From an uncultured Gammaproteobacteria bacterium (GTDB lineage Bacteria > Patescibacteriota > Microgenomatia > Daviesbacterales > UBA10151), in NCBI GenBank assembly GCA_964504665.1, contig CAZDEH010000003.1, positions 1,140-65,139 on the forward strand: 64,000 nt of DNA, written 5' to 3'. Positions 3,045 to 64,000 of this stretch are shown here, one piece after another (within the stretch, counting starts at the first letter, position 1; each line of letters opens with the position of its first letter). The notes beneath the pieces were generated by a model. That model saw only the letters and a list, made by a program, of their open reading frames with translations. It was not told where the DNA came from and made no database searches. The translations under genes and the position numbers were made by a program.

Positions 3045-3117
3045 TCTTTAGCCACACAAGTGGACGTCTTGTGTGCCTAAATTAGAAAAACAGCCTCAAG
3101 TCTGGTAAAATACACTA

Positions 3118-4431: not shown

Positions 4432-5286
4432 ATGAAAAAACCTAAGTTGAAAGTGGTCTTTTTTGGGACACCTGATTTTGTGATTCCGGTTTTAACAACT
4501 TTAATCAAAAATTTTGATGTTGTTGGAGTTGTGACTGCACCAGATAAAGCAGTTGGCAGAAAACAAATCCTCACTCCCTCACCAATTAATTTAGCCTCAC
4601 AAGCCGAGGGCTTGCGAGGCTATAATCTTAAAATATTTACTCCCGAAAAATTAGATGAGGAGTTAGCCAAAAAAATATATAAATTAAAATCTGATCTATT
4701 TGTAATGGCTTCTTATGGCAAAATTATTCCACAATTTATTTTAGATATTCCCAAATTTGGTGCTATCAATATCCACCCGTCACTACTACCAAAGTACCGA
4801 GGACCTTCTCCCATCCAATCTGCTATTTTAAATGGTGATAAAATTTCCGGGATTTCCATTATGAAGATGGATGCCAAAATGGACCATGGACCTGTTATTT
4901 ATGCAGAAGAGTTTAGATTATCAAGTCTAGATAATTTTCAAACTTTGAGTATAAATATGTTTCTTCGTTCTGCCGAAATTTTATCTAAAATAATTACCGC
5001 ATTTATAAGCGGTAAATTAATTCTTACATCACAAGACGATATAAAAGCTACTTATTGTAAGTTGGTTACTAAAGAAGATGGATATTTTGATATTGATAAT
5101 CCTGCCTCTCCAGTAAAATTAGATCAAATGGTCAGAGCCTATTATCCCTGGCCCACAGCTTGGACTAAGTGGGAAGGTAAAATTGTTAAATTTTTACCAG
5201 GAAATATGGTCCAGCTAGAAGGCAAAAAGCCAGTTCAATTAGAAGATTTCTTAAGAGGTTATCCTAATTTCCCGTTAAAATCCTGA
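4432..5286 (+). CDS. fmt: methionyl-tRNA formyltransferase
   Basis: KVVFFGTPDFVIPVL N-terminus; NIHPSLLPKYRG plus a formyltransferase SLD-like motif; def-fmt neighbourhood. Contains an in-frame GC-rich palindrome (4592-4622). Confidence 0.85.
   Translation: MKKPKLKVVFFGTPDFVIPVLTTLIKNFDVVGVVTAPDKAVGRKQILTPSPINLASQAEGLRGYNLKIFTPEKLDEELAKKIYKLKSDLFVMASYGKIIPQFILDIPKFGAINIHPSLLPKYRGPSPIQSAILNGDKISGISIMKMDAKMDHGPVIYAEEFRLSSLDNFQTLSINMFLRSAEILSKIITAFISGKLILTSQDDIKATYCKLVTKEDGYFDIDNPASPVKLDQMVRAYYPWPTAWTKWEGKIVKFLPGNMVQLEGKKPVQLEDFLRGYPNFPLKS
4592..4622. repeat. REP-like GC-rich palindrome, family A (tagcctcacaagcc-gag-ggcttgcgaggcta), in-frame inside fmt, encoding LASQAEGLRG
   Basis: Imperfect inverted repeat seen directly; same core (gcctcgcaagg...ccttgcgaggc) at 28989-29017 and 48006-48035, all in the same codon phase. 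Confidence 0.7.
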
Positions 5287-6287: not shown

Positions 6288-7394
6288 TTATCGGAGACCT
6301 TCTAGTAACATAGAGTAGAACCTGAGATTGTGGATTGTAGCTAACCTAATAGATAAAACGTCCTGGATTTTAAATAAATGATGTAAATAGGCACGGGAAT
6401 ATTCCCTACAGGTTAAACAATCACAAAATTTACTGACTGGATCCATCGATTTTTCATATTTAGCGCTCCCAAAGTATAAGTTCGAGTAACAACTTCCTTC
6501 AATTAATCCTTGTTTAGTAGGAAGTTTGGTAAAAACGTATAACTTTTTATGGCGGGCTTCCCGGGTTGGGATCACGCAGTCAAAGATTCCATAACCCCAA
6601 CCAACACAGTCAACAATATTTTCCGGTCTACCCACCCCCAAAGCATATTTTGGTTTATTGTCTGGTAATAATGAGGCTGTATACTTTACAATTTCAGACA
6701 AAAATTTCCCATCAGCAACCGGAAAACCACCAAAACAATAACCATCAAAGCCAATTTTGATCAGCTCTTTAGCACAATATTTCCTTAAATTTTTATCATT
6801 TCCACCCTGAACAACTGCAAAAAGAAGAGGTTTAGCCTTGCAAGGATACACCTTGCGAAGCTGGGGCTGGCTAGTAGTTAATTTATTAAACTCATCTTTT
6901 GACCTTTTTGCCCACTTAATAGTCCTTTCTACTGAAATTTTTTGTTCATCAAATGAGCATTCCGGCTTAGTACAATCATCCAAAACTATAGCTATATCTG
7001 TACCCAACCGTAGTTGTAACTGAATTGATTTTTCAGGAGTCAGAACTATTTTTTGTGCTCCATTTGGCTTAAAAATAATTTCTTTATCCCTGATAACTCC
7101 AAATTGTGGATTATCATGGATCAAAGACATTACCTGGAAGCCCCCAGAATCGGTTATGATGGGTCTTGTCCACCTCATAAAGTAGTGAATACCGTCAAAA
7201 CTTTTAATTCTTTGGCTGAGTGCATCTGATAACAGATGATAGGTATTAATAACTAAACCCTCAACCTGAGCATTTTCTAAATCCGTGGCATCAACTCCCC
7301 TTACTACTCCCCTTGTTCCATCAGGGAAAAAGGTAGGCAGAGTTATTTGACCATGAAGAGTCTGTAAGTGACTTAAGCAACTGGATGAGAACAT
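6288..7394 (-). CDS. tgt: queuine tRNA-ribosyltransferase (tRNA-guanine transglycosylase)
   Basis: DSGGFQV, ALGVGRPE, FDCVIPTR and the zinc motif CDCLTCREYSRAYLHHL. Confidence 0.85.
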   Translation of the reverse strand: MFSSSCLSHLQTLHGQITLPTFFPDGTRGVVRGVDATDLENAQVEGLVINTYHLLSDALSQRIKSFDGIHYFMRWTRPIITDSGGFQVMSLIHDNPQFGVIRDKEIIFKPNGAQKIVLTPEKSIQLQLRLGTDIAIVLDDCTKPECSFDEQKISVERTIKWAKRSKDEFNKLTTSQPQLRKVYPCKAKPLLFAVVQGGNDKNLRKYCAKELIKIGFDGYCFGGFPVADGKFLSEIVKYTASLLPDNKPKYALGVGRPENIVDCVGWGYGIFDCVIPTREARHKKLYVFTKLPTKQGLIEGSCYSNLYFGSAKYEKSMDPVSKFCDCLTCREYSRAYLHHLFKIQDVLSIRLATIHNLRFYSMLLEGLR

Positions 7395-28501: not shown

Positions 28502-30697
28502 ATGCCCAGGCATTATAAAAAACCAGTTAAATCAAGTTCGTGGATACTACCTCTTCTTGCTGTGGCTTTTATTTTGATCAAAATTGGGCAAATACCTCTT
28601 TTTTTATGCAAAGTCATCATATTACTACTGACAATAAAATTACCTAGCAGATTTTTGGCTGGGTTACCAAAAGTCATTAAATTTCAAACTGTTATTTTCC
28701 TTTTTGCTATTTTTATCATTCTCTATTCTTATATTTTGTTAAAACTAGCTGTTCAGCTTCCTTCACCGGAGTTACTATCTGTTACCCCCCGCCCATTAAC
28801 TACGCAGGTTTTTGACAGAAACGGCAAGTTATTATTTCAGTTTTATGAAGGACAAAACCGTCAACCAATTGATATCAATACGCTGCCAAAATATATACTG
28901 CAAGCAACAATCGCCATCGAGGACAAACATTTTTATTCCCATCTTGGTTTTGATGCAGAAGGAATCATCCGTGCTCTGAAAGTCCGTCTAGCCTCGCAAG
29001 GATCAACCTTGCAAGGCGGATCAACAATCACCCAACAATTAATTAAAAATACCTTACTCACCCCTGACAAAACCCTAAAACGAAAAATTAAGGAGGTTAT
29101 TTTAGCTTTTTGGGCTGAAAGATTATACACCAAAGATCAAATTCTCCAGATGTATCTAAACGAGGCACCTTTTGGTGGACCATCCTGGGGAATTGAATCT
29201 GCTGCACAAACGTATTTTAACAAAAGTGCGAAAGATTTAAGTTTGGCCGAAAGCTCATTCCTGGCAGGACTTCCCGCTGCTCCTACAGAATACTCTCCTT
29301 TTGGTATTTATCCGGATAAGGGGAAGACAAGACAAATAGAAGTTCTACGCAGGATGGTAGAAGATGGGTATATCACCAAAGAGCAAATGACCCAAGCTCT
29401 CTCTGAAACTTTATCCTTTAAATCTCAAATTTTAGATATTAGAGCTCCCCACTTTGTAATGTACGTCCGTTCTCTACTGGCTGCTAAATACGGCGAAAAA
29501 GTAGTTTCCCAAGGAGGCTTGAAAGTTATTACCACACTTGATTTGAGTCTCCAGGAAATGGCAGAAAATATAGTTACACAAAATATGATTCCGTTGGCAA
29601 ATTTAAAAGTTGGAAACAGTGCAGCTATGATCACCGATAGTAGAAATGGTCAAATTTTAGTGATGGTGGGATCAAAGGATTATTTCGAAACAAACAGTGG
29701 TAATTATAATGTGGCTTTGGCAACCCGTCAACCAGGCTCATCTATTAAACCTGTAACCTATGCCACAGGATTTATGCAAGGCTTTACTCCAGGTACAACC
29801 CTTCTTGATTCCCATACAACATTCCCTCAAGCTGGGAGTAAACCTTATTCCCCGGTTAATTATGATGGCAGATTTCATGGACCTGTTTCGATAAGAACAG
29901 CTCTTGGATCTTCATATAATGTTCCTGCTGTCAAAATGTTAGCTCTGGTTGGAGTTCCCCAAATGATAAATACAGCTAAAGACTTAGGCATTACCACATT
30001 TAGTGATCCAGATAATTACGGATTATCCCTCACTCTTGGAGGTGGTGGAGTCAGACTAATTGATATGATGACAGTTTACGGCACTTTTGCTGCAAACGGT
30101 ATTAAACATCCCTCGCAAGCAATCTTAAAAATATATGACCCATACGGAAATGTGTTGGAAGACCACAGTAAAGATCAAGGAAAGCGTGTATTGTCGGAAG
30201 AAGTGGCATATCTTATAAATAATATTTTATCTGATAATAACGCCAGAACACCTGCTTTTGGAGTTAACTCACTTCTACAAATTTCTGGACATATAGTAGC
30301 AGTTAAAACAGGTACTTCAGATGATAAACGGGATAACTGGACCTTTGGGTATACTCCGGAGTATACAGTCGGGGTTTGGGTTGGGAATAATGATAACTCA
30401 CCCATGAACCCTATTCTTACTTCAGTCATCACAGGCGCTACTCCTATCTGGCATGATCTGATGACACAGATTTTAGTAGACAAATCAGATTTAGCATTCC
30501 AGAAACCGCCCGGGATAATTAATGCTGTAGTAGATAGCAGACACGATTTGGCAATTGCTGGAGTTCCGCCAAAATCAGTAACCAGGCTCAGTAAAATTCG
30601 AGGGAAGAACGGAACAACTGGCGAAGAAAAAGAAACTACAGCTTTTTCTGATCAATTCTCTAATTTTAAGCCTAATCAAAAAACAGTCATTCAGTAA
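28502..30697 (+). CDS. bifunctional class A penicillin-binding protein (GT51 transglycosylase + transpeptidase), PBP1A-like
   Basis: AIEDKHFYSHLGFD, QGGSTITQQL, RKIKE (GT51 motifs); SSIKP (SxxK), SYN, KTGTSDD (KTG). Contains an in-frame REP-A palindrome at 28989-29017. Confidence 0.85.
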   Translation: MPRHYKKPVKSSSWILPLLAVAFILIKIGQIPLFLCKVIILLLTIKLPSRFLAGLPKVIKFQTVIFLFAIFIILYSYILLKLAVQLPSPELLSVTPRPLTTQVFDRNGKLLFQFYEGQNRQPIDINTLPKYILQATIAIEDKHFYSHLGFDAEGIIRALKVRLASQGSTLQGGSTITQQLIKNTLLTPDKTLKRKIKEVILAFWAERLYTKDQILQMYLNEAPFGGPSWGIESAAQTYFNKSAKDLSLAESSFLAGLPAAPTEYSPFGIYPDKGKTRQIEVLRRMVEDGYITKEQMTQALSETLSFKSQILDIRAPHFVMYVRSLLAAKYGEKVVSQGGLKVITTLDLSLQEMAENIVTQNMIPLANLKVGNSAAMITDSRNGQILVMVGSKDYFETNSGNYNVALATRQPGSSIKPVTYATGFMQGFTPGTTLLDSHTTFPQAGSKPYSPVNYDGRFHGPVSIRTALGSSYNVPAVKMLALVGVPQMINTAKDLGITTFSDPDNYGLSLTLGGGGVRLIDMMTVYGTFAANGIKHPSQAILKIYDPYGNVLEDHSKDQGKRVLSEEVAYLINNILSDNNARTPAFGVNSLLQISGHIVAVKTGTSDDKRDNWTFGYTPEYTVGVWVGNNDNSPMNPILTSVITGATPIWHDLMTQILVDKSDLAFQKPPGIINAVVDSRHDLAIAGVPPKSVTRLSKIRGKNGTTGEEKETTAFSDQFSNFKPNQKTVIQ
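28989..29017. repeat. REP-like family A palindrome in-frame in PBP1A (tagcctcgcaagg-atcaa-ccttgcaaggc, encoding LASQGSTLQG)
   Basis: Seen directly; same codon phase as the other two family A copies. Confidence 0.7.
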
Positions 30698-31167: not shown

Positions 31168-31189
31168 CCTCCAAGGAGAGTCCTTGGAG
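31168..31189. repeat. REP-like family B palindrome (cctccaagg-agagt-ccttggag) 40 nt upstream of the RAYT-like gene start
   Basis: Perfect 9-bp arms seen directly. Confidence 0.7.
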
Positions 31190-31227
31190 TCTTGACAAAA
31201 ACATTACTATATGTAATAAATGTATCT

Positions 31228-31914
31228 ATGCCTGCAAGAAACGCCATAAAACAATATCAGGAAAATGGATATTATCATCTTTATAATAGAGGTGTGGAAA
31301 AGAGGATTATCTTTCTGGACTCCCAGGATTATGGTGTATTCCTCTCTTATCTGAAAGAGTATCTTCTTCCTAAAGATGATGTTGGTTTGAGTAAACAACT
31401 CTCAAATTCCAATATTACTCCTAGAGAAAAGGATAAGATTCTTAAAGCTCTTAGATTAAATAATTTTTTTGGCGAAATAACCTTATTCACCTACTGCCTA
31501 ATGCCTAATCATTTTCACCTATTGATTAGACAAAAAAGTGCTGGTTCAATTAATAAATTTATGAGATCAATCGGAACAAGATACACCATGTATTTTAATA
31601 AAAAATATAAAAGGGTTGGAGCTCTCTGCCAGGCAGTGTACAAAGCAGTACTCATAGAAAATAACAACCAACTATTACACCTTAGCAGATATATTCATAA
31701 ACAATCCTTAGCTTCGCAAGGAGAGTCCTTGGAGGCACAACCATGCTCATATTTTGATTATCTTGGTAAAAGAAAAACTGAATGGGTAAAACCAGAAGAA
31801 ATTTTAGCCTATTTTTCTTCCACAAATCCCTTCCTCTCCTACCAAGCTTTTGTAGAAGAGAAAGATGATGAACTAATTCCCCACAAACTCCTTTTAGAAG
31901 AAGGCTGGCCATAA
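31228..31914 (+). CDS. HUH/Y1 transposase family protein (IS200/IS605 TnpA-like, REP-associated tyrosine transposase-like), paralog 1
   Basis: GYYHLYNRGVEKR (YHV.NRG-like), HUH motif MPNHFHLL, Tyr region RYIHKQ; ATG at 31228 lies downstream of the REP; paralog of 36343-37017. Confidence 0.65.
   Translation: MPARNAIKQYQENGYYHLYNRGVEKRIIFLDSQDYGVFLSYLKEYLLPKDDVGLSKQLSNSNITPREKDKILKALRLNNFFGEITLFTYCLMPNHFHLLIRQKSAGSINKFMRSIGTRYTMYFNKKYKRVGALCQAVYKAVLIENNNQLLHLSRYIHKQSLASQGESLEAQPCSYFDYLGKRKTEWVKPEEILAYFSSTNPFLSYQAFVEEKDDELIPHKLLLEEGWP
31707..31732. repeat. REP-like A/B hybrid palindrome (gcttcgcaagg-agagt-ccttggaggc) inside the RAYT-like CDS, encoding LASQGESLEA
   Basis: Seen directly; the left arm is family-A-like and the right arm family-B-like. 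Confidence 0.6.
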
Positions 31915-34965: not shown

Positions 34966-34970
34966 TTTTT

Positions 34971-35237
34971 ATGAAAGAAGATTTTTTGAGAACTACTGAA
35001 AATGTTTTAAAAGAAGGACCTCCATTAGAATGGTACTATGGATTTGGAAGAAAAGATGCTGGAATTACACATATAGATTATTCAGATATCTTTAGACAAT
35101 CTTTTAATGGAAGATTAGATCGCTATTTTGGGCAGTGGTCTCATATTGGTGTCATGCCAAGGGTTTTTGGAATTCCTGAAGGAGAAGAAGATCAATATGA
35201 ACAGTTAATTATGCAACTGCATGTACAAGATCTATAA
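34971..35237 (+). CDS. hypothetical small protein
   Basis: ORF only. Confidence 0.3.
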   Translation: MKEDFLRTTENVLKEGPPLEWYYGFGRKDAGITHIDYSDIFRQSFNGRLDRYFGQWSHIGVMPRVFGIPEGEEDQYEQLIMQLHVQDL

Positions 35238-35270
35238 GATATCTGGATTTTGGCCTGAAGAAATCGTACA

Positions 35271-36185
35271 TTCTAGGTGGAAGTGCACCACTTGCTTAGG
35301 ATAATACCTCCATCATTTTCTCATATGGTGTCAAGTATCCCAGACATTTTCTGGGAGTTGAATTTAATCTGTACTCCAACTCCTTGATCTGATCCTCTGT
35401 TAAATTATCCAGACTCAACCTTTTAGGAATGAATCTTCTTATCCTGCCATTAGTATTTTCAACTGTCCCTTTCTCCCAGGAATGGTAGGCATGACAGAAA
35501 AACATAGATAATTTAAGTTTACTGGCAATCTCCTGATGGTTGGTATTTTCTGCTCCATTGTCAGCTGTTAAAGTTACTCTGGGAAAAGTAGCCAATCTTT
35601 CAATTAAGCTTTCTGTTTTAGACTCAGCAGATCTACTGGTAAGAGATAATATCGTCAGTCTTGTTAACCTTTCAACTGTCACAGACAAGGCAGTTTTATC
35701 TGTCTGTTTACCAATAACATTATCTGTTTCCCAGTCTCCAACCCTGGATCTTAAGCTGACTGTCTCAGGTCTTAAATCAATACTGACTGCAAAGGGTATT
35801 TTTGAGGCTCTTTGAACCCTTCTACCCATCTTTTTCATCCTCTTTTTCCTGGCATGAGGTAGTAGTTTCCAAAGATTATATCTTTTTGATTTCTTTGAAT
35901 AAATGTACTGGTAAATTGCCTCAGTACAAATACTTTCACCAGGATGTATCTTTGGTAATCTTCCACTAATTTCCTCCGGAGTCTAGCTAAATGGAGCTCT
36001 TAAATGTTCCCTGACAAAACTTGAATGGGATCTGCCTAATCTTTTAGCAATATCCCGAAGAGATAATCCAGCCTCTTTAAAAGCTACTAATTTTTCTCTT
36101 TCTTCCAAACTTAGATGTTTATATTTATTCATTAAGTGCACCTCCTTCCCCAGGTATGAATTTTACTCTAGGTGGTGCACTTCGT
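35271..36185. mobile_element. degenerate IS30-family insertion sequence (~0.9 kb)
   Basis: DDE transposase with IS30 hallmarks; imperfect terminal inverted repeats sharing the core GAAGTGCACCAC (35280-35291 and, as reverse complement, 36172-36183); direct tctaggtgg at both ends. Confidence 0.6.
35296..36132 (-). pseudogene. IS30-family transposase, disrupted by an in-frame TAG (35983-35985) and missing ~50 aa between the HTH and DDE regions
   Basis: N-terminal HTH (LSLEEREKLVAFKEAGLSLRDIAKRLGRSHSSFVRE), then TAG, then TPEEISGRLPKIHPGESICTEAIYQYIY, GDWETD, TADNGAE, HSWEKGTVENTNGRIRRFIPK. Confidence 0.65.
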
Positions 36186-36284
36186 TTTAGAATCTATGAA
36201 TAGTAGGAAAAAAGATGCTCTTTTAATAATTTATGAAGGACTAGAATCTGCTCCATTTCAAGTCTTATTAATAAATTGATTTGT

Positions 36285-36309
36285 GCCTCCAAGGGGACGC
36301 CTTGGAGGT
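36285..36309. repeat. REP-like family B palindrome (gcctccaagg-ggacg-ccttggaggt), 5' flank of the RAYT-like gene
   Basis: Seen directly; an identical 23-nt copy at 37039-37061. Confidence 0.75.
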
Positions 36310-36342
36310 TGACATTTCTCACAGTCATGCTATTTTATATAT

Positions 36343-37017
36343 ATGCCCAGCAAAAATTCCATCAAACAGTATACAGAAAATAGCTATTATCATATCTATA
36401 ATCGAGGAGTTGAGAAAAGAAAAATTTTTCTTGATGAACAAGATTATGGAGTATTCCTCTCCTATCTTAAAGAATACCTTTTATCAAAAGATGAAAAAGA
36501 CTTATTAAATCAACTTTCTATTCCAACTATCTCTGCTCAAGAAAGGGACCGGGTACTTAAAAAACTTAGACTGAACAATTTTGCTGATGAAATAACTTTG
36601 TTAGCTTATTGTTTGATGCCGAATCATTTTCACTTCTTTATTAAGCAAAAAAACGAAAAGTCCATTGATAAGTTTATGAATTCCCTCTTAACTAGATATA
36701 CTATGTATTTTAATAAAAAATATAAACGAGTTGGGGCTTTATATCAGGATGTTTATAAAGCAGTTACGGTTGACCGCGAAGATCAATTTCTTTATCTTAC
36801 TAAATATATTCATAAACAGGCTTTAAAAACCCACAAAAGACAACCGTCTTCCCTACCTGATTATCTTGGAAACAGAAAAACTGAATGGGTTCACCCCGAA
36901 GAAATATTAGCTTATTTTTCCAAAACCAAACCCTCTCTTAGTTATAAAGATTTCCTTGATCTAGAAGAATCTGAAGATCTATTAACTATCCAAGACTTAA
37001 TGATTGATATCAAATAA
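36343..37017 (+). CDS. HUH/Y1 transposase family protein (RAYT/IS200-like), paralog 2
   Basis: SYYHIYNRGVEKR, MPNHFHFF (HUH), KYIHKQ; flanked by identical palindromes. Confidence 0.65.
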   Translation: MPSKNSIKQYTENSYYHIYNRGVEKRKIFLDEQDYGVFLSYLKEYLLSKDEKDLLNQLSIPTISAQERDRVLKKLRLNNFADEITLLAYCLMPNHFHFFIKQKNEKSIDKFMNSLLTRYTMYFNKKYKRVGALYQDVYKAVTVDREDQFLYLTKYIHKQALKTHKRQPSSLPDYLGNRKTEWVHPEEILAYFSKTKPSLSYKDFLDLEESEDLLTIQDLMIDIK

Positions 37018-37038
37018 CTCTCCACTCTCCCTCTTCAT

Positions 37039-37061
37039 GCCTCCAAGGGGACGCCTTGGAG
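37039..37061. repeat. REP-like family B palindrome (gcctccaagg-ggacg-ccttggag), 3' flank of the RAYT-like gene
   Basis: Identical to 36285-36307. Confidence 0.75.
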
Positions 37062-37063
37062 AT

Positions 37064-47872: not shown

Positions 47873-49063
47873 ATGAAAATAGGTTTTGATGGATCCCGTG
47901 CTTTTTTCAATAATAAGACCGGCACGGAAAATTATTCCTTTCAACTCTTAAAACACCTAGCTAAAATTGACAGTAAAAACCAATATATCATTTATTTAAG
48001 ACCTTTAGCCTCGCAAGGACCAGCCTTGCAAGGCTGGCCGACTAATTTCCATTTTACTATGATTCCTTATTCAAGACTATGGACTCAATTTGGCTTAGCT
48101 CAACAAACTTTTAAAGATAAAATTGATGTGCTATTTGTTCCTGCCCACACACTCCCCTTAATTAGAAAACCCGGACTTAAAACTGTAGTCACAGTACATG
48201 ACTTAGGTGCAGAGTACTTACCACAAACTCATCAATTAAAACAAAGGGTATATTTAAAATTGATAACTGATTTTCAACTTAAATCTGCCGGATATCTTAT
48301 TGCCGTATCAAGGAATACTAAAGATGATCTGGTGAAAAAAGTCCATATTAATCCTAATAAAATCACTGTTATATATGAAGGATATGATAAAACAGCATTT
48401 AAACCCTTAAAAACTGATGAATTAAAAGATACTTTAAACTATTACGATTTAGAAAGAGATAGATATTTCTTATTTGTGGGAACCATCCAACCAAGAAAGA
48501 ATTTAGAAAGGTTAATTAAAGCTTTTGCTAATTTTTTAGCGGGTGGTGCGAGCCGGGGCGCCCCATATTTTTATTATGGGGCTGGCGAGCAACAGGACCC
48601 GTTAAAGCCCCGAACAAAAAAAATACAACTTATCCTAACTGGTTCTAAAGGTTGGCTTTCAGAAGAAATTTATGAACTTCCTAAAAAGCTTGGTATCGAA
48701 AATCAAGTGAAGTTTTTAGGCTATGTTCCTGACAAGAATTTACCGGCGCTTTACAGCGGAGCTACCGCCTTACTTTTCCCTTCCTTATTTGAAGGTTTTG
48801 GACTACCTCTACTTGAAGCTATGGCTTGTGGAACACCGGTTTTAACATCTAATCTTTCTTCTATGCCGGAGATTTCAGGAAAAGCAGCACTCCTTGTAGA
48901 TCCTTACTCTGAAGAACAAATCGCGCAAGGAATTAATAGGCTATTTTACGATCAAAAACTAAAAAATCAGCTGAAAAAACTGGGAATTGCGCAAGCCCAA
49001 AAATATTCCTGGGAAAGATGTGCTGAGGAAACCTTAAAACTACTTGAAGCTACTTCAGATTAA
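47873..49063 (+). CDS. GT4-family glycosyltransferase carrying two in-frame GC-rich inserts
   Basis: EGFGLPLLEAMACGTPV (GT4 E-x7-E region); inserts at 48006-48035 (LASQGPALQG) and 48540-48613 (AGGASRGAPYFYYGAGEQQDPLKPRT). Confidence 0.75.
   Translation: MKIGFDGSRAFFNNKTGTENYSFQLLKHLAKIDSKNQYIIYLRPLASQGPALQGWPTNFHFTMIPYSRLWTQFGLAQQTFKDKIDVLFVPAHTLPLIRKPGLKTVVTVHDLGAEYLPQTHQLKQRVYLKLITDFQLKSAGYLIAVSRNTKDDLVKKVHINPNKITVIYEGYDKTAFKPLKTDELKDTLNYYDLERDRYFLFVGTIQPRKNLERLIKAFANFLAGGASRGAPYFYYGAGEQQDPLKPRTKKIQLILTGSKGWLSEEIYELPKKLGIENQVKFLGYVPDKNLPALYSGATALLFPSLFEGFGLPLLEAMACGTPVLTSNLSSMPEISGKAALLVDPYSEEQIAQGINRLFYDQKLKNQLKKLGIAQAQKYSWERCAEETLKLLEATSD
48006..48035. repeat. REP-like family A palindrome in-frame in the GT4 gene (tagcctcgcaagg-accag-ccttgcaaggct)
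   Basis: Seen directly. Confidence 0.7.
48540..48613. repeat. GC-rich element family C (gggtggtgcgagccggggcgccccat ... atggggctggcgagcaacaggaccc), in-frame in the GT4 gene
   Basis: Near-identical arms recur at 56326-56400 with a different central segment. Confidence 0.7.
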
Positions 49064-61609: not shown

Positions 61610-64000
61610 TTAGATAACAATGTTAAATATTTTACCCGGAACGTAAATTATTTTTTTGATAGAGTTTTCTCTAATATATTTGTCAATTTTTGGTAATTTT
61701 AAGACCATTTCTTCAATGATTTTTTTATTATTTACTATATCTTTTTGTATCAAAATGTTTTCCCGTAGTTTACCGTTTATCTGTATAACCAAAATGGTCT
61801 GTTCATCTTCCAGGTATTTTTTATCAAATTCAGGCCAGGGTTGGTTATGGATAGAATACTTATTCCCCATTATCTCCCACAGTTCTTCAGTAATAAACGG
61901 CGCTATTGGAGATAACATAATCAGCAGCTTTTGAATGGTATCTTTGGAGGCTGTTTTTTGTCTGGATAGAAAGTTTAATAGCTCCATTAGACTTGCCACA
62001 ACAGTATTGTATCGCAGGTTTTCAAAATCATTATCAGTTTTTTCGATAGTTTTGTTCAAAATTCTCTTTTCTTCTTCTGTCGCCTCAATATCTTTATAAT
62101 TTTGTACTAAACCCCACACCCTGTTAAGAAAACGATAGGTTCCATTTAAACCGTCATCCCGGAAATCACCCCCACCAGTAAATGGTCCCATAAACATTAG
62201 ATAGGCTCTGAATACATCGGCTCCCCAATCTTTAATGTATTTATCAGGCACAACTACATTACCTTTAGATTTACTCATTTTAGCTCCGTCTTTAATAATT
62301 AAACCGTGAGCCCTAAATTTTGTGAATGGTTCTTCGAAATCAATAAATCCCAGATCCTTAAAAGCCATGGTGATAAACCGCGAGTAAAGCAAGTGAAGAA
62401 CTGAGTGCTCTGCCCCACCAATATACATATCTACAGGCAGCCATTTCTTAGTTCTACTGTCATCAAAAAATTTGTCATCTAAATCCGTGGTTAAATATCT
62501 AAAAAAATATAAAGCTGAGTCAAAAAAATTATCCGATACATCAGTCTCACGCCTGGCTTTTCCCCCACACTTAGGGCAAGTAGTATTAACAAAATCTGGA
62601 TCTGAAGCTAAAGGCCCTAAACCTGTACCCGTAGGCTTAAAATCTTTAACATAAGGCAACTCTACTGGCAAATCTTTTTCCGGCACGGGCTGGGTTCCAC
62701 ACTTATCGCAGTAAATTATTGGAATTGGTGGACCCCAATACCTTTGCCTGGAAATTAACCAATCACGCAGATGATATTGAATTTTAATTGAGCCCAGATG
62801 ATGCTCTACGAGATAGTTTGTTATCTTCTCTCTCGCTTCCGGGGAATTCATACCATTATACTCTCCGCTATTAACAAGTACTCCTTCACCCTCATAAGCT
62901 TCTTCTGATATCTCAGCTTCACAAGGTGTATCCTTGCGAAGCTGAATAACAGTTTGGATGGGTAAATTATATTTCTTAGCAAACTCAAAATCCCTTTGAT
63001 CGTGTGCCGGAACAGCCATAATTGCGCCTGTTCCATAACCCATCAACACATAATCAGCCACCCACACAGGAATGTCTTTCCCAGTGAGAGGATTTTTAAC
63101 AAATGTACCTGTAAAAATACCTGTTTTTTCCTTATCTCCTTGGCGTTCAATATCAGATTTTTCCTTGGCTGCTTGAACATAATCTGAAACTTTGCCTTTC
63201 TGCTCTTTAGTAACTAGTTGATCTATTTTTGGGTATTCCGGACTAATAACCAAGAAAGTTGCTCCAAAAACAGTATCCGGCCTGGTAGTAAACACTTCTA
63301 ATTCGCCGAATTTTATTAAGGCTCCCTCTGATTTTCCTATCCAATTGCGCTGAGCTGTTTTGACTAATTCCGTCCAGTCTAAGGAATCTATATTTAAAAG
63401 CAGTTTTTCTGCATAATCTGTGATCTTTAGAAACCATTGGTCCACTTCTTTTTGAACCATTGTTCAAGTTCTTTTTTCGTCACCCGAGAAGAACATCTCT
63501 CACACTCTCCGGAAATAACCTGCTCATCAGCGAGTACTGTCAGACATGATGGACACCAATTTACCTCTGCTCTTTTCCGGTAAGCCAATCCCTTTTTATA
63601 TAGCTGAAGAAAAGCCCACTCCGTCCATTTGTAATAGTTTGATTTATATGTATCGACTGTTTTCTGCCAATCAAAAGCATTCCCAATTAATAAAAACTGC
63701 TCATAAAAATGCTTTTCTGTTCTTTTACTCACCTCCATTGGATGCTCATTTATTTTCATTGCATAATTTTCGCCATGAATTCCAAAACCATCCAGGCCAA
63801 TAGGTTCAAATACATCATACCCTTGTAGCCTTTTAAACCTGGAGTAAACATCTGATCCTGTAAAAGCATACATATTACCTACATGCATACCCTCAGCTGA
63901 AGGATAAGGAAACATCATCAGAGAATAATATGGTTTTTTTGATTCATCTAAATCAGGGCTAAATAGACCATCTTCTTTCCACTTTTTTGCCCATTTAGGT
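61610..64000 (-). CDS. leuS: leucyl-tRNA synthetase, split by a frameshift near 63430-63475; N-terminus extends beyond the window
   Basis: FPYPSAEGMHVGN (HIGH), CERCSSRV, then WFLKITDYAEKLL in the second ORF; KMSKS at MSKSKGN; upstream frame remains open to nt 64000. Confidence 0.8.

Follow-up and report, generated by a model that had tools for sequence, protein, structure and literature searches.

A gene for a tyrosine transposase that carries a palindrome within its own coding sequence raises the question of how the palindrome came to lie there. The gene, which we call T1, is located in a 64-kb stretch of DNA (hereafter the window; G+C 36%) of an uncultured Microgenomates-group bacterium from a Rifle groundwater metagenome, and resembles the genes of the tyrosine transposases (RAYTs) associated with repetitive extragenic palindromes (REPs). 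A REP-like hairpin stands upstream of T1, and a second copy, which looks like a hybrid of two palindrome families found in the window (families A and B), stands in frame inside it. Is the internal copy a recent recombinant, a recent hit on the transposase gene, or an inherited part of that gene? From the comparison of homologous sequences, we read the internal palindrome as an old, inherited trait of the T1 subfamily and not as a recent hit on T1. The explanation that we favor, and consider probable, is that T1 is an inherited, domesticated RAYT-type Y1/HUH transposase of this bacterium, which forms a REPtron-like unit with an ancestral internal REP copy. The features of the locus are listed below; all window counts refer to these 64 kb of the T1 genome.

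31228-31914, forward strand: T1, a RAYT-like Y1/HUH tyrosine transposase gene of 228 amino acids, assigned by Pfam, alignment, AlphaFold (AF2) modeling, Foldseek and a syntenic ortholog.
31169-31189, forward strand: the upstream family B hairpin of T1, CTCCAAGGA-GAG-TCCTTGGAG, recognized by its fold and by its presence at the same place in the ortholog (locus L083) and in most related loci.
31192-31197, forward strand: TTGACA, a -35-like hexamer 2 nt past the upstream hairpin, read from the sequence.
31708-31736, forward strand: the internal REP copy of T1 (TTAG foot, arms and loop), in frame and encoding L161-A170.

The internal element begins with the TTAG foot (31708-31711), the final G of which is also the first base of the left arm GCTTCGCAAGG (31711-31721), and continues with the loop AGAGT (31722-31726) and the right arm CCTTGGAGGC (31727-31736). 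The palindrome encodes the peptide ASQGESLEA (residues 162-170). The original prediction had placed one palindrome at 31168-31189, upstream of T1, and another at 31707-31732, within it. The upstream hairpin was indeed found at 31169-31189: as single-stranded DNA (ssDNA) it folds with -8.5 kcal/mol (z -3.7), and 0 of 200 shuffled sequences folded as well. It can be written as CTCCAAGG(A)-GAG-(T)CCTTGGAG, and 38 nt separate it from ATG 31228. When the window was searched for this element with up to 3 mismatches, 5 sites were found, compared with 0 in 100 shuffles. The internal palindrome was also present in the coding sequence of T1, at 31711-31736, so that the predicted position was 4 nt too low. 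The two elements were said to share their loop and right arm, and 18 bases (CAAGGAGAGTCCTTGGAG) are identical in them; the left arm of the internal element had been ascribed to family A, and it matches the four family A palindromes at 6834-6862, 28991-29017, 48007-48035 and 62913-62945.

The internal element is not peculiar to T1. At E < 1e-10, T1 has at least 7,895 homologs, which, where named, are transposases of Microgenomates / Patescibacteria; the related loci were scanned with one genome per species, which gave 79 loci (L-numbers) with 1.24 Mb of DNA in total. A linker A-[S/L]-Q-G-x-x-L-[Q/R/E] follows just past the catalytic tyrosine in 174 of 208 close homologs, while the other 34, among them the paralog T2 in the same window, have a short linker, which points to repeated loss of the internal element. 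In an alignment of the 120 best hits, nearly all sequences read KQAL-A-[S/L]-Q-G-x-x-L-[Q/R/E] after RYIH, T2 being the exception. The peptide A-L-Q-G-x-x-L-Q-G can be written as GCC TTG CAA GGn nnn nCC TTG CAA GGC, a perfect family A palindrome. The linker residues covary as base pairing predicts: in raw counts, uncorrected for phylogeny, over 115 scored sequences (T1 included), R (CGA) was found with S (TCG) in 22 cases and with L in 4, and E (GAR) was found with L or F in 20 cases and with S in 4. The element itself was seen in the DNA of all 11 close homologs examined (L004-L009, L012, L016, L020, L083 and L085), weakly in L008.

The canonical relatives read YIHLNP-V.S.LVK...Y.WSSY and have no hairpin at the linker site. 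Many distant relatives have unrelated linker peptides, each encoded by a strong palindrome that equals the noncoding hairpins flanking the same gene, just upstream of its start and just after its stop. Such palindromes common to linker and flanks are AGCTTCGCAAGGC in L016, TAGCTTCGCAAG-accaccc in L020, AAGGTCTCACCTT in L026, TGACAAGGT in L036, TACTAAGGGT in L047 and TGACAGGGG in L071, and the same identity of linker palindrome and flank hairpins was found in L004, L057, L038 and L039. Linker hairpins scoring at least 20 occurred in 15 of 74 genes; in control windows of equal size taken from these genes, the count was 6 of 298. Internal hairpins shared at least 13 nt with their own flanks in 18 of 29 cases and with the flanks of other loci in only 7 of 812 cross-locus pairs. 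The upstream and downstream hairpins matched each other in 37 of the 48 related loci that have one on each side.

The closest comparison is provided by the T1 ortholog P0001 (locus L083; 75% amino acid identity), which lies in a 1.13-Mb contig of the Microgenomates metagenome-assembled genome (MAG) SO_2017_GW1_59. The gene order PBP1A - T1 - ASCH-like - SecE - NusG - L11 - L1 is the same in the window and in SO_2017_GW1_59. Between T1 and this ortholog the nonsynonymous divergence (dN) is 0.18 and the synonymous divergence (dS) 1.33, values similar to those of NusG, and dN/dS is about 0.14. A search of about 5.8 billion proteins for near-identical copies found none, the best homolog of T1 being 75% identical and the best non-self homolog of T2 77%. 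We take these comparisons to show that T1 has been inherited vertically under purifying selection.

In L083, TTGACA follows an upstream hairpin that reads GGCTCCAAGGC-cag-GCCTTGGAGCC, and the internal element, GCCTTCCAAGGC-cag-GCCTTGGAGGC, occupies the same codons as that of T1 and has 20 nt in common with the L083 upstream hairpin. The center of the element is AGAGT in both T1 copies and C-CAG-G in both L083 copies, so that the two copies read ...CAAGG-AGAGT-CCTTG... in the window and ...CAAGGC-CAG-GCCTTG... in the syntenic ortholog. Since the centers match within each locus, the two copies must have changed in step, by an exchange of sequence or under joint selection. Thus, the sequences support the view that, within one locus, the upstream and the internal copy exchange sequence or co-evolve. 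The synonymous divergence of T1 from its ortholog amounts to 0.71 on the 5' side of the hairpin and is significantly lower, 0.42, on the 3' side; the nucleotide identity reaches its maximum (83-90%) over the internal hairpin and the next 45 nt or so (window 31688-31778).

The predicted protein appears to be an intact enzyme. The ATG at 31228 is the true start, because M1 is invariant among the homologs in an alignment of 25 sequences. T1 matched the Pfam family PF01797 (Y1_Tnp) with 41 bits (E 2.4e-10), and T2 matched it with 52.8 bits, the cutoff being 23. The HUH motif H95-F96-H97, the catalytic Y155 and Q159 (at +4 from Y155), as well as N94, are invariant in the 25-sequence alignment. In the AF2 model of T1 (predicted local distance difference test, pLDDT, 82.7), Y155 lies within helix 146-165, and the internal palindrome site falls at the end of this catalytic helix and in a loop of low pLDDT; pLDDT falls below 50 at residues 165-168, the central part of the peptide that the palindrome encodes. 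Foldseek of the model returned as top solved structure 4er8_A, the E. coli RAYT (YafM) with a bound REP hairpin, followed by the TnpA proteins of IS608 and ISDra2, with 2a6o and 2xqc among the fold matches. A profile of the family alignment found no match among the sequences of the PDB at E up to 0.01, so the structural link to RAYT, IS608 and ISDra2 is one of fold comparison alone. The C-terminal tail of T1 is 'SSY', typical of class 2, and no tnpB accompanies T1 or T2. T1 thus encodes an intact Y1/HUH enzyme with a predicted fold nearest to the E. coli RAYT-REP complex. The description of T1 as RAYT-like therefore stands, given the Y1_Tnp match, 4er8 as best structure, the syntenic ortholog under purifying selection, the flanking hairpins and the dispersed palindromes.

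The dispersed palindromes in the window are those of family A, which are as follows.

3047-3081, forward strand: a family-A-like palindrome, TTTAGCCACACAAG-tggacgt-CTTGTGTGCCTAAA, the sole extragenic copy, 2 nt past a stop codon.
4592-4622, forward strand: a family-A-like 'double foot' REP, TAGCCTCACAAGCC-gag-GGCTTGCGAGGCTA, in fmt, read as LASQAEGLRG.
6834-6862, reverse strand: a family A REP in the tgt gene, read as PQLRKVYPCK, with 9 additional amino acids (27 nt).
28991-29017, forward strand: a family A REP in the transglycosylase domain of PBP1A, read as ASQGSTLQG.
48007-48035, forward strand: a family A REP in a GT4 glycosyltransferase gene, read as ASQGPALQG.
62913-62945, reverse strand: a family A REP in the editing domain of leucyl-tRNA synthetase (LeuRS), read as QLRKDTPCEA; -12.0 kcal/mol, z -6.6.

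Families A and B account for all 8 exact CAAGG-N5-CCTTG sites in the window. Family A or A-like palindromes occupy six places, and five of the six are in frame inside coding regions covered by Pfam; in fmt, for instance, the Formyl_trans_N match spans residues 7-172 and the REP falls at about residues 54-64. Two reading frames are used by the intragenic copies, one giving LASQGxxLQG and the other LRKxxPCK, and the 27-nt (9-codon) unit of family A has no fixed stop codon in any frame. The copy in tgt is a clean 27-nt insertion, which adds 9 amino acids compared with the homologs P0123 (86% identical) and P0124 (83%); at the level of sequence, the comparison shows a true insertion polymorphism. 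At the same site, the TGT homologs P0122-P0159 carry palindrome-encoded inserts that differ by lineage (for example QPRKAGPCKA, ASQPCKAWPCKA and QGEALPRKASP), and the closest relatives have no insert, which suggests that the site may be a recurrent insertion hot spot. LeuRS (61610-63918, reverse strand) is read as two ORFs (open reading frames), 63427-63918 with the catalytic N-terminal part and 61610-63460 with the editing and C-terminal parts, which overlap by 34 nt; this could reflect a frameshift, a split gene or an assembly error, and the N-terminal ORF may run off the end of the window.

The feet of family A are TTAG or CTAG, with GTAG in a few relatives; family B has no foot, and the 5' guide tetranucleotide GT[AG]G of RAYT systems was not matched. 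In a metagenome pattern scan, which gives the contexts of family A copies and not their frequencies and returned many chance matches, 19 family A palindromes with a TTAG or CTAG foot were found among the matches listed, often with the 'double foot' TAGC...GCTA, and nine of these 19 lie inside ORFs of at least 150 amino acids, where a third frame, SFARxxLAKL, is also used. Around other related genes, 7 dispersed copies were found, none of them (0/7) intragenic, so that the intragenic habit cannot be generalized beyond family A.

We propose that the T1 locus is REPtron-like, with a REP-like hairpin placed upstream against TTGACA and a second copy in the flexible linker that follows the helix of the catalytic tyrosine. 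In many relatives, the stop codon is followed closely by a third copy; T1 is a two-site locus. The internal copy would have been present already in the ancestor of the subfamily, and it would be tolerated because it encodes a disordered surface loop. It would be kept like the flanks of its own locus by short-tract exchange or by common selection for recognition by the enzyme, and would be deleted now and then, as in T2. The family A palindromes in the window would be dispersed copies of the same REP lineage, some of which entered housekeeping genes as 27-nt inserts. The biochemistry of E. coli TnpAREP and of IS608 TnpA provides the basis for ssDNA hairpin recognition and foot cleavage. By analogy, the T1 enzyme may bind the hairpins as ssDNA and cleave them at their feet, and it may spread solo copies and could replace or homogenize existing ones. 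The internal copy may have a role of its own, such as autoregulation or marking a cassette boundary, or it may be a mere passenger that conversion keeps similar.

The hairpin-TTGACA adjacency of T1 is also found at T2 (36309-36314) and in the ortholog L083 (about 9965). In L026, L036, L048, L051, L054, L064 and L071, too, TTGACA lies directly against the 3' arm of the upstream hairpin or partly within it, and the -35 box looks as if it were part of the repeat at many loci. A consensus promoter scan found no canonical -10 and called no promoter at the TTGACA beside the T1 hairpin; from the hexamer itself, a promoter role at T1 is conceivable. Three independent assemblies from the same or related samples (L001-L003) all break about 170 nt upstream of T1 (window about 31059 onward).

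Several observations weigh against this explanation. T1 lacks a downstream hairpin, and among the related loci the upstream and downstream hairpins are in direct orientation in 24 cases, inverted in 8 and tied in 3, an arrangement like that of IS200/IS605 and not that of the inverted REPtron. In the NCBIfam model NF047646 (REP_Tyr_transpos), T1 (35.3 bits) and T2 (38.9 bits) scored below the cutoff of 80, and the tyrosine motif of T1 and its subfamily is Y-I-H-K-Q, not the Y---NP of class 2; the wider relatives from the same search read YIH[LR]NP. Family B flanks T1 and T2 and has no dispersed copies in the 64 kb, and the dispersed family A flanks no gene within the window. The palindrome in PBP1A is not explained by simple insertion: compared with a 72% identical syntenic ortholog (L083, about 8200), RLASQGSTLQG stands in place of the unrelated NFDGE-RIMEG, one residue shorter, so that a loop of nearly equal length was replaced and no 27 nt were added. 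Finally, the internal element of T1 is a weak hairpin (a stem with one bulged G that folds with -6.5 kcal/mol; z -1.9), equaled by 11 of 200 shuffles; its significance rests on sequence identity and conservation among homologs, not on folding energy. In general, the internal copies fold less stably than those at the flanks (-6.5, -6.8, -7.0 and -10.9 compared with -8.5, -11.9, -14.6 and -14.7 kcal/mol), as coding constraint would produce.

A further reading, which we consider rather unlikely, is that the internal hairpin is a working third site, recognized on ssDNA, that serves replication-coupled autoregulation or delimits exchangeable cassettes between hairpins. As cassettes, the upstream-internal and internal-downstream units would let paralogs swap catalytic and C-terminal modules while keeping their hairpins matched. 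The matching of internal copies and flanks across lineages, the lower synonymous divergence on the 3' side and the identity peak at the hairpin are all compatible with such a site. When recombination between T1 and T2 at the hairpin was examined by the identity on both sides, there was no sign of exchange between the paralogs, the nucleotide identity being 0.69 on one side and 0.69 on the other.

Less likely again is that T1 and T2, or T2 by itself, are ordinary insertion sequences of the IS200/IS605 type, in which the flank hairpins would be the left and right ends, while the internal hairpin would represent either a fossil of such an end or an alternative to it. The features of T2 are as follows.

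36343-37017, forward strand: T2, a paralogous Y1 transposase gene (Pfam) of 224 amino acids, 63% identical to T1 and without the internal palindrome.
36286-36308, forward strand: the upstream family B hairpin of T2, CCTCCAAGG-GGACG-CCTTGGAGG, followed by TTGACA; -10.9 kcal/mol, z -5.2.
37041-37061, forward strand: the downstream family B hairpin of T2, in the same orientation as the upstream copy.

Both T2 flanks read CCTCCAAGG-GGACG-CCTTGGAG(G) in direct orientation, and the downstream copy is identical to the upstream copy at 33 of 45 positions when aligned directly and at 24 of 45 when inverted. The unit of hairpin, gene and hairpin is compact (about 780 bp), and its orientation is direct in T2 and in most of the related loci, as would be that of an insertion sequence of this type. 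T2 is also absent from the syntenic site in L083, where the spacer between rplA and the LPG synthase gene measures 73 nt, compared with about 2 kb in the window, and Q at +4 from the catalytic tyrosine is a class 1 signature (PMC6006769). Against this, T1 has a syntenic ortholog at a dS of about 1.3, near-identical copies were absent from the approximately 5.8 billion proteins, and the two paralogs share no more than 63% identity (64-kb window, MAG assemblies). In addition, T1 has 228 amino acids with the class 2 'SSY' tail and relatives that read YIHLNP, there is no tnpB, and solo hairpins are dispersed without a gene.

The segment of about 2 kb missing from the relative (34966-37063, compared with L083 14382-14454) holds T2, an ORF without Pfam match (35296-35838, reverse strand) and a 49-amino-acid fragment of HTH_38 (IS30-like). 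In L084, a different gene of 462 amino acids is found at this spot, which looks like a variable insertion hot spot between rplA and the LPG synthase gene. A search of the 'empty' T2 site in L083 for a REP found none. Two diverged Y1 paralogs within 10 kb also occur in several related genomes (L071, L070, L072 and L020), and in L071 each paralog has its own hairpin family, ATATCAAGGTT and TGACAGGGG, which mirrors the pair of T1 and T2.

That the internal element arose recently, by recombination between two separate REP families (A and B) or by insertion of a REP into T1, is distinctly unlikely. The upstream B hairpin of T1, a perfect one, consists of the loop and right arm of the internal copy and their complement, so that the internal element looks like a hybrid of A and B. 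The 18 nt identical between the B hairpin and the internal element, the left arm identical to family A and the missing segment in T2 all favor it. T2 does read differently at this site, as had been noted: it has ALKTHKRQP, with a gap of 12 nt in the alignment with T1, and no hairpin. From the distribution among homologs, however, T2 is the one that lost the palindrome, since the linker is present in 174 of the 208 homologs and T2 is an exception. The syntenic ortholog has its internal element at the same codons, and the S..E type of linker seen in T1 occurs in 4 of the 115 scored sequences (T1 in the set).

The hybrid design itself is also found where no family B flank exists. In L085 (P0004, 71% identical), perfect family A hairpins stand on both sides, TAGCTTCGCAAGG-agagt-CCTTGTGAAGCTA (-14.6 kcal/mol), and the internal element TAGCTTCGCAAGG-agagt-CCTTGGAAG, which like that of T1 has a bulged G when folded, shows the same design, namely a TTAG foot, the left arm GCTTCGCAAGG, the loop AGAGT and the right arm CCTTGGA. 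Since a design of left A and right B is present without a B flank in L085, the internal element of T1 is not a recombinant of its own B hairpin with a family A element. In L009, an asymmetric design is common to all three copies. Thus, the recombination between REP families suggested by the original prediction finds no support in that form, given L085 and L009. Its other suggestion, that the transposase gene is itself a target, holds insofar as a cognate REP lies in frame within the gene, and fails as a recent hit, given how many homologs have it. Families A and B differ mainly by one base pair of the outer stem and look like variants of one REP lineage. In the inherited-copy explanation, the internal copy of T1 would be a coding-constrained, imperfect version with a bulged G, a family A foot and left arm, and CCTTGGAG as right arm, and the T1 flank may have been remodeled on the internal copy, or the reverse.

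It is very unlikely that the hairpins act as RNA, that is, as mRNA stem-loops for stability, processing or translation, like REPs in 3' untranslated regions or the 5' stem-loop of IS200. The internal and downstream copies are transcribed with the gene, and REPs are known RNA elements in other bacteria (PMC3733652). The upstream copy, however, precedes TTGACA and is probably outside the mRNA, and a promoter and terminator scan found no intrinsic terminator at any hairpin and no terminator-like T-tract. The linker types give a weak hint in the same direction, the antisense G-T wobble type S..Q being found in 34 cases and the sense G-U type L..R in 4. A comparison of the window with Rfam at gathering thresholds returned only five tRNAs, and none of the hairpins was matched.

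Least probable is conservation at the protein level only, with A-S-Q-G-x-x-L-Q-G as a functional peptide and palindromy as a by-product: the peptide is strongly conserved in homologs of 60-75% identity, but distant relatives have unrelated peptides each encoded by the palindrome of their own flanks, this DNA element is also carried by other genes, which read it in different frames, disorder is predicted for the loop and the element has been lost repeatedly, and differing peptides at the same position that match their noncoding neighbors in DNA rule out a purely protein-level explanation.

To our knowledge, studies of REP/RAYT systems have been confined almost entirely to Proteobacteria and Cyanobacteria, and our search of the literature on RAYTs and REP-associated tyrosine transposases in Patescibacteria, or the candidate phyla radiation (CPR), found no description of such a system. 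The tiny, gene-dense CPR genomes appear to hold a very large RAYT-like family, with the at least 7,895 homologs given above. If our explanation is true, a hairpin in the coding sequence of the enzyme itself would make a natural three-site system in which to study the co-evolution of enzyme and site, and the 27-nt palindromes in essential genes (tgt, PBP1A, LeuRS, fmt and the glycosyltransferase gene) would indicate that, in genomes with little intergenic space, REP-like elements can also lie within genes. The palindrome-made peptide motifs (LASQGxxLQG, LRKxxPCK and SFARxxLAKL) look conserved and could mislead alignment and annotation.

REPtrons, in which RAYT (TnpAREP) genes are flanked by REPs, are said to have been described by Nunvar in 2010, Bertels and Rainey in 2011 and Ton-Hoang in 2012. 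T1 is like them in its Y1/HUH enzyme, low copy number, vertical inheritance and diverged paralogs, in having its own short hairpin family for each gene and related solo hairpins dispersed, and in the RAYT-REP complex as its best structural match. It differs in belonging to a CPR lineage, in its foot (TTAG or CTAG in family A and none in family B, instead of GT[AG]G), in the mostly direct orientation of the flanks in T1-type loci, in the YIHKQ motif, in the NCBIfam RAYT score below cutoff and in the mostly intragenic position of the dispersed copies in the window. As REPs in general, these elements are short (20-40 nt), GC-rich, repeated palindromes, but five of the six family A places in the window are intragenic. 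With the IS200/IS605 elements IS608 and ISDra2, the locus shares the Y1 enzyme, the direct sub-terminal hairpins on one strand (in T2; T1 lacks the downstream one), the compact form and the Q at +4; unlike these elements, T1 and T2 do not form identical multi-copy units, a syntenic ortholog of T1 exists, the protein exceeds theirs in length and ends in the class 2 tail, and there is no tnpB.

In the classification of TnpAY1 proteins by Quentin et al. in 2018 (PMC6006769), REPs in frame within tnpAREP genes are described for subclass 2.4, in Cyanobacteria and Bacteroidetes. There, as in T1, a cognate REP lies in the transposase frame without disruption, in a peripheral and variable region of the protein; the T1-type insert, however, is at residues 161-170, past Y155 and before the 'SSY' tail, occurs almost throughout a large subfamily and changes with the flank hairpins from lineage to lineage. 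Subclass 2.1 has NH[YF]H, Y[IV]HLNP, an SS tail and about 238 amino acids, and has been reported without REPs or with terminal inverted repeats (PMC6006769, PMC3733652), and subclass 2.6 has atypical hairpins (PMC6006769). The T1 family shares with subclasses 2.1 and 2.6 (TIRYT) the NH[YF]H motif, Y[IV]HLNP in the wider relatives, the 'SS' tail and a length of about 230 amino acids; unlike subclass 2.1, the CPR genes are flanked by clear hairpins at both ends and often contain one as well. Intragenic REPs, including some in tRNA synthetase genes, were described by Di Nocera et al. in 2013, who also point to the Rickettsia palindromic elements (RPEs) (PMC3733652). Both resemble family A as in-frame palindromes in housekeeping genes, tRNA synthetases among them, that add extra surface peptides (PMC3733652), but RPEs are 100-150 bp long and many intragenic REPs are dimers, whereas family A here is a single unit of 27 nt and 9 codons. 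The principle is thus known, in-frame REPs in RAYT and other genes having been published for other phyla. What is new here is the phylum, the position of the insert after the catalytic tyrosine, its near-universality in the subfamily, its tracking of the flank hairpins, the TTAG foot, the mostly direct orientation of the flanks and the high intragenic share of family A.

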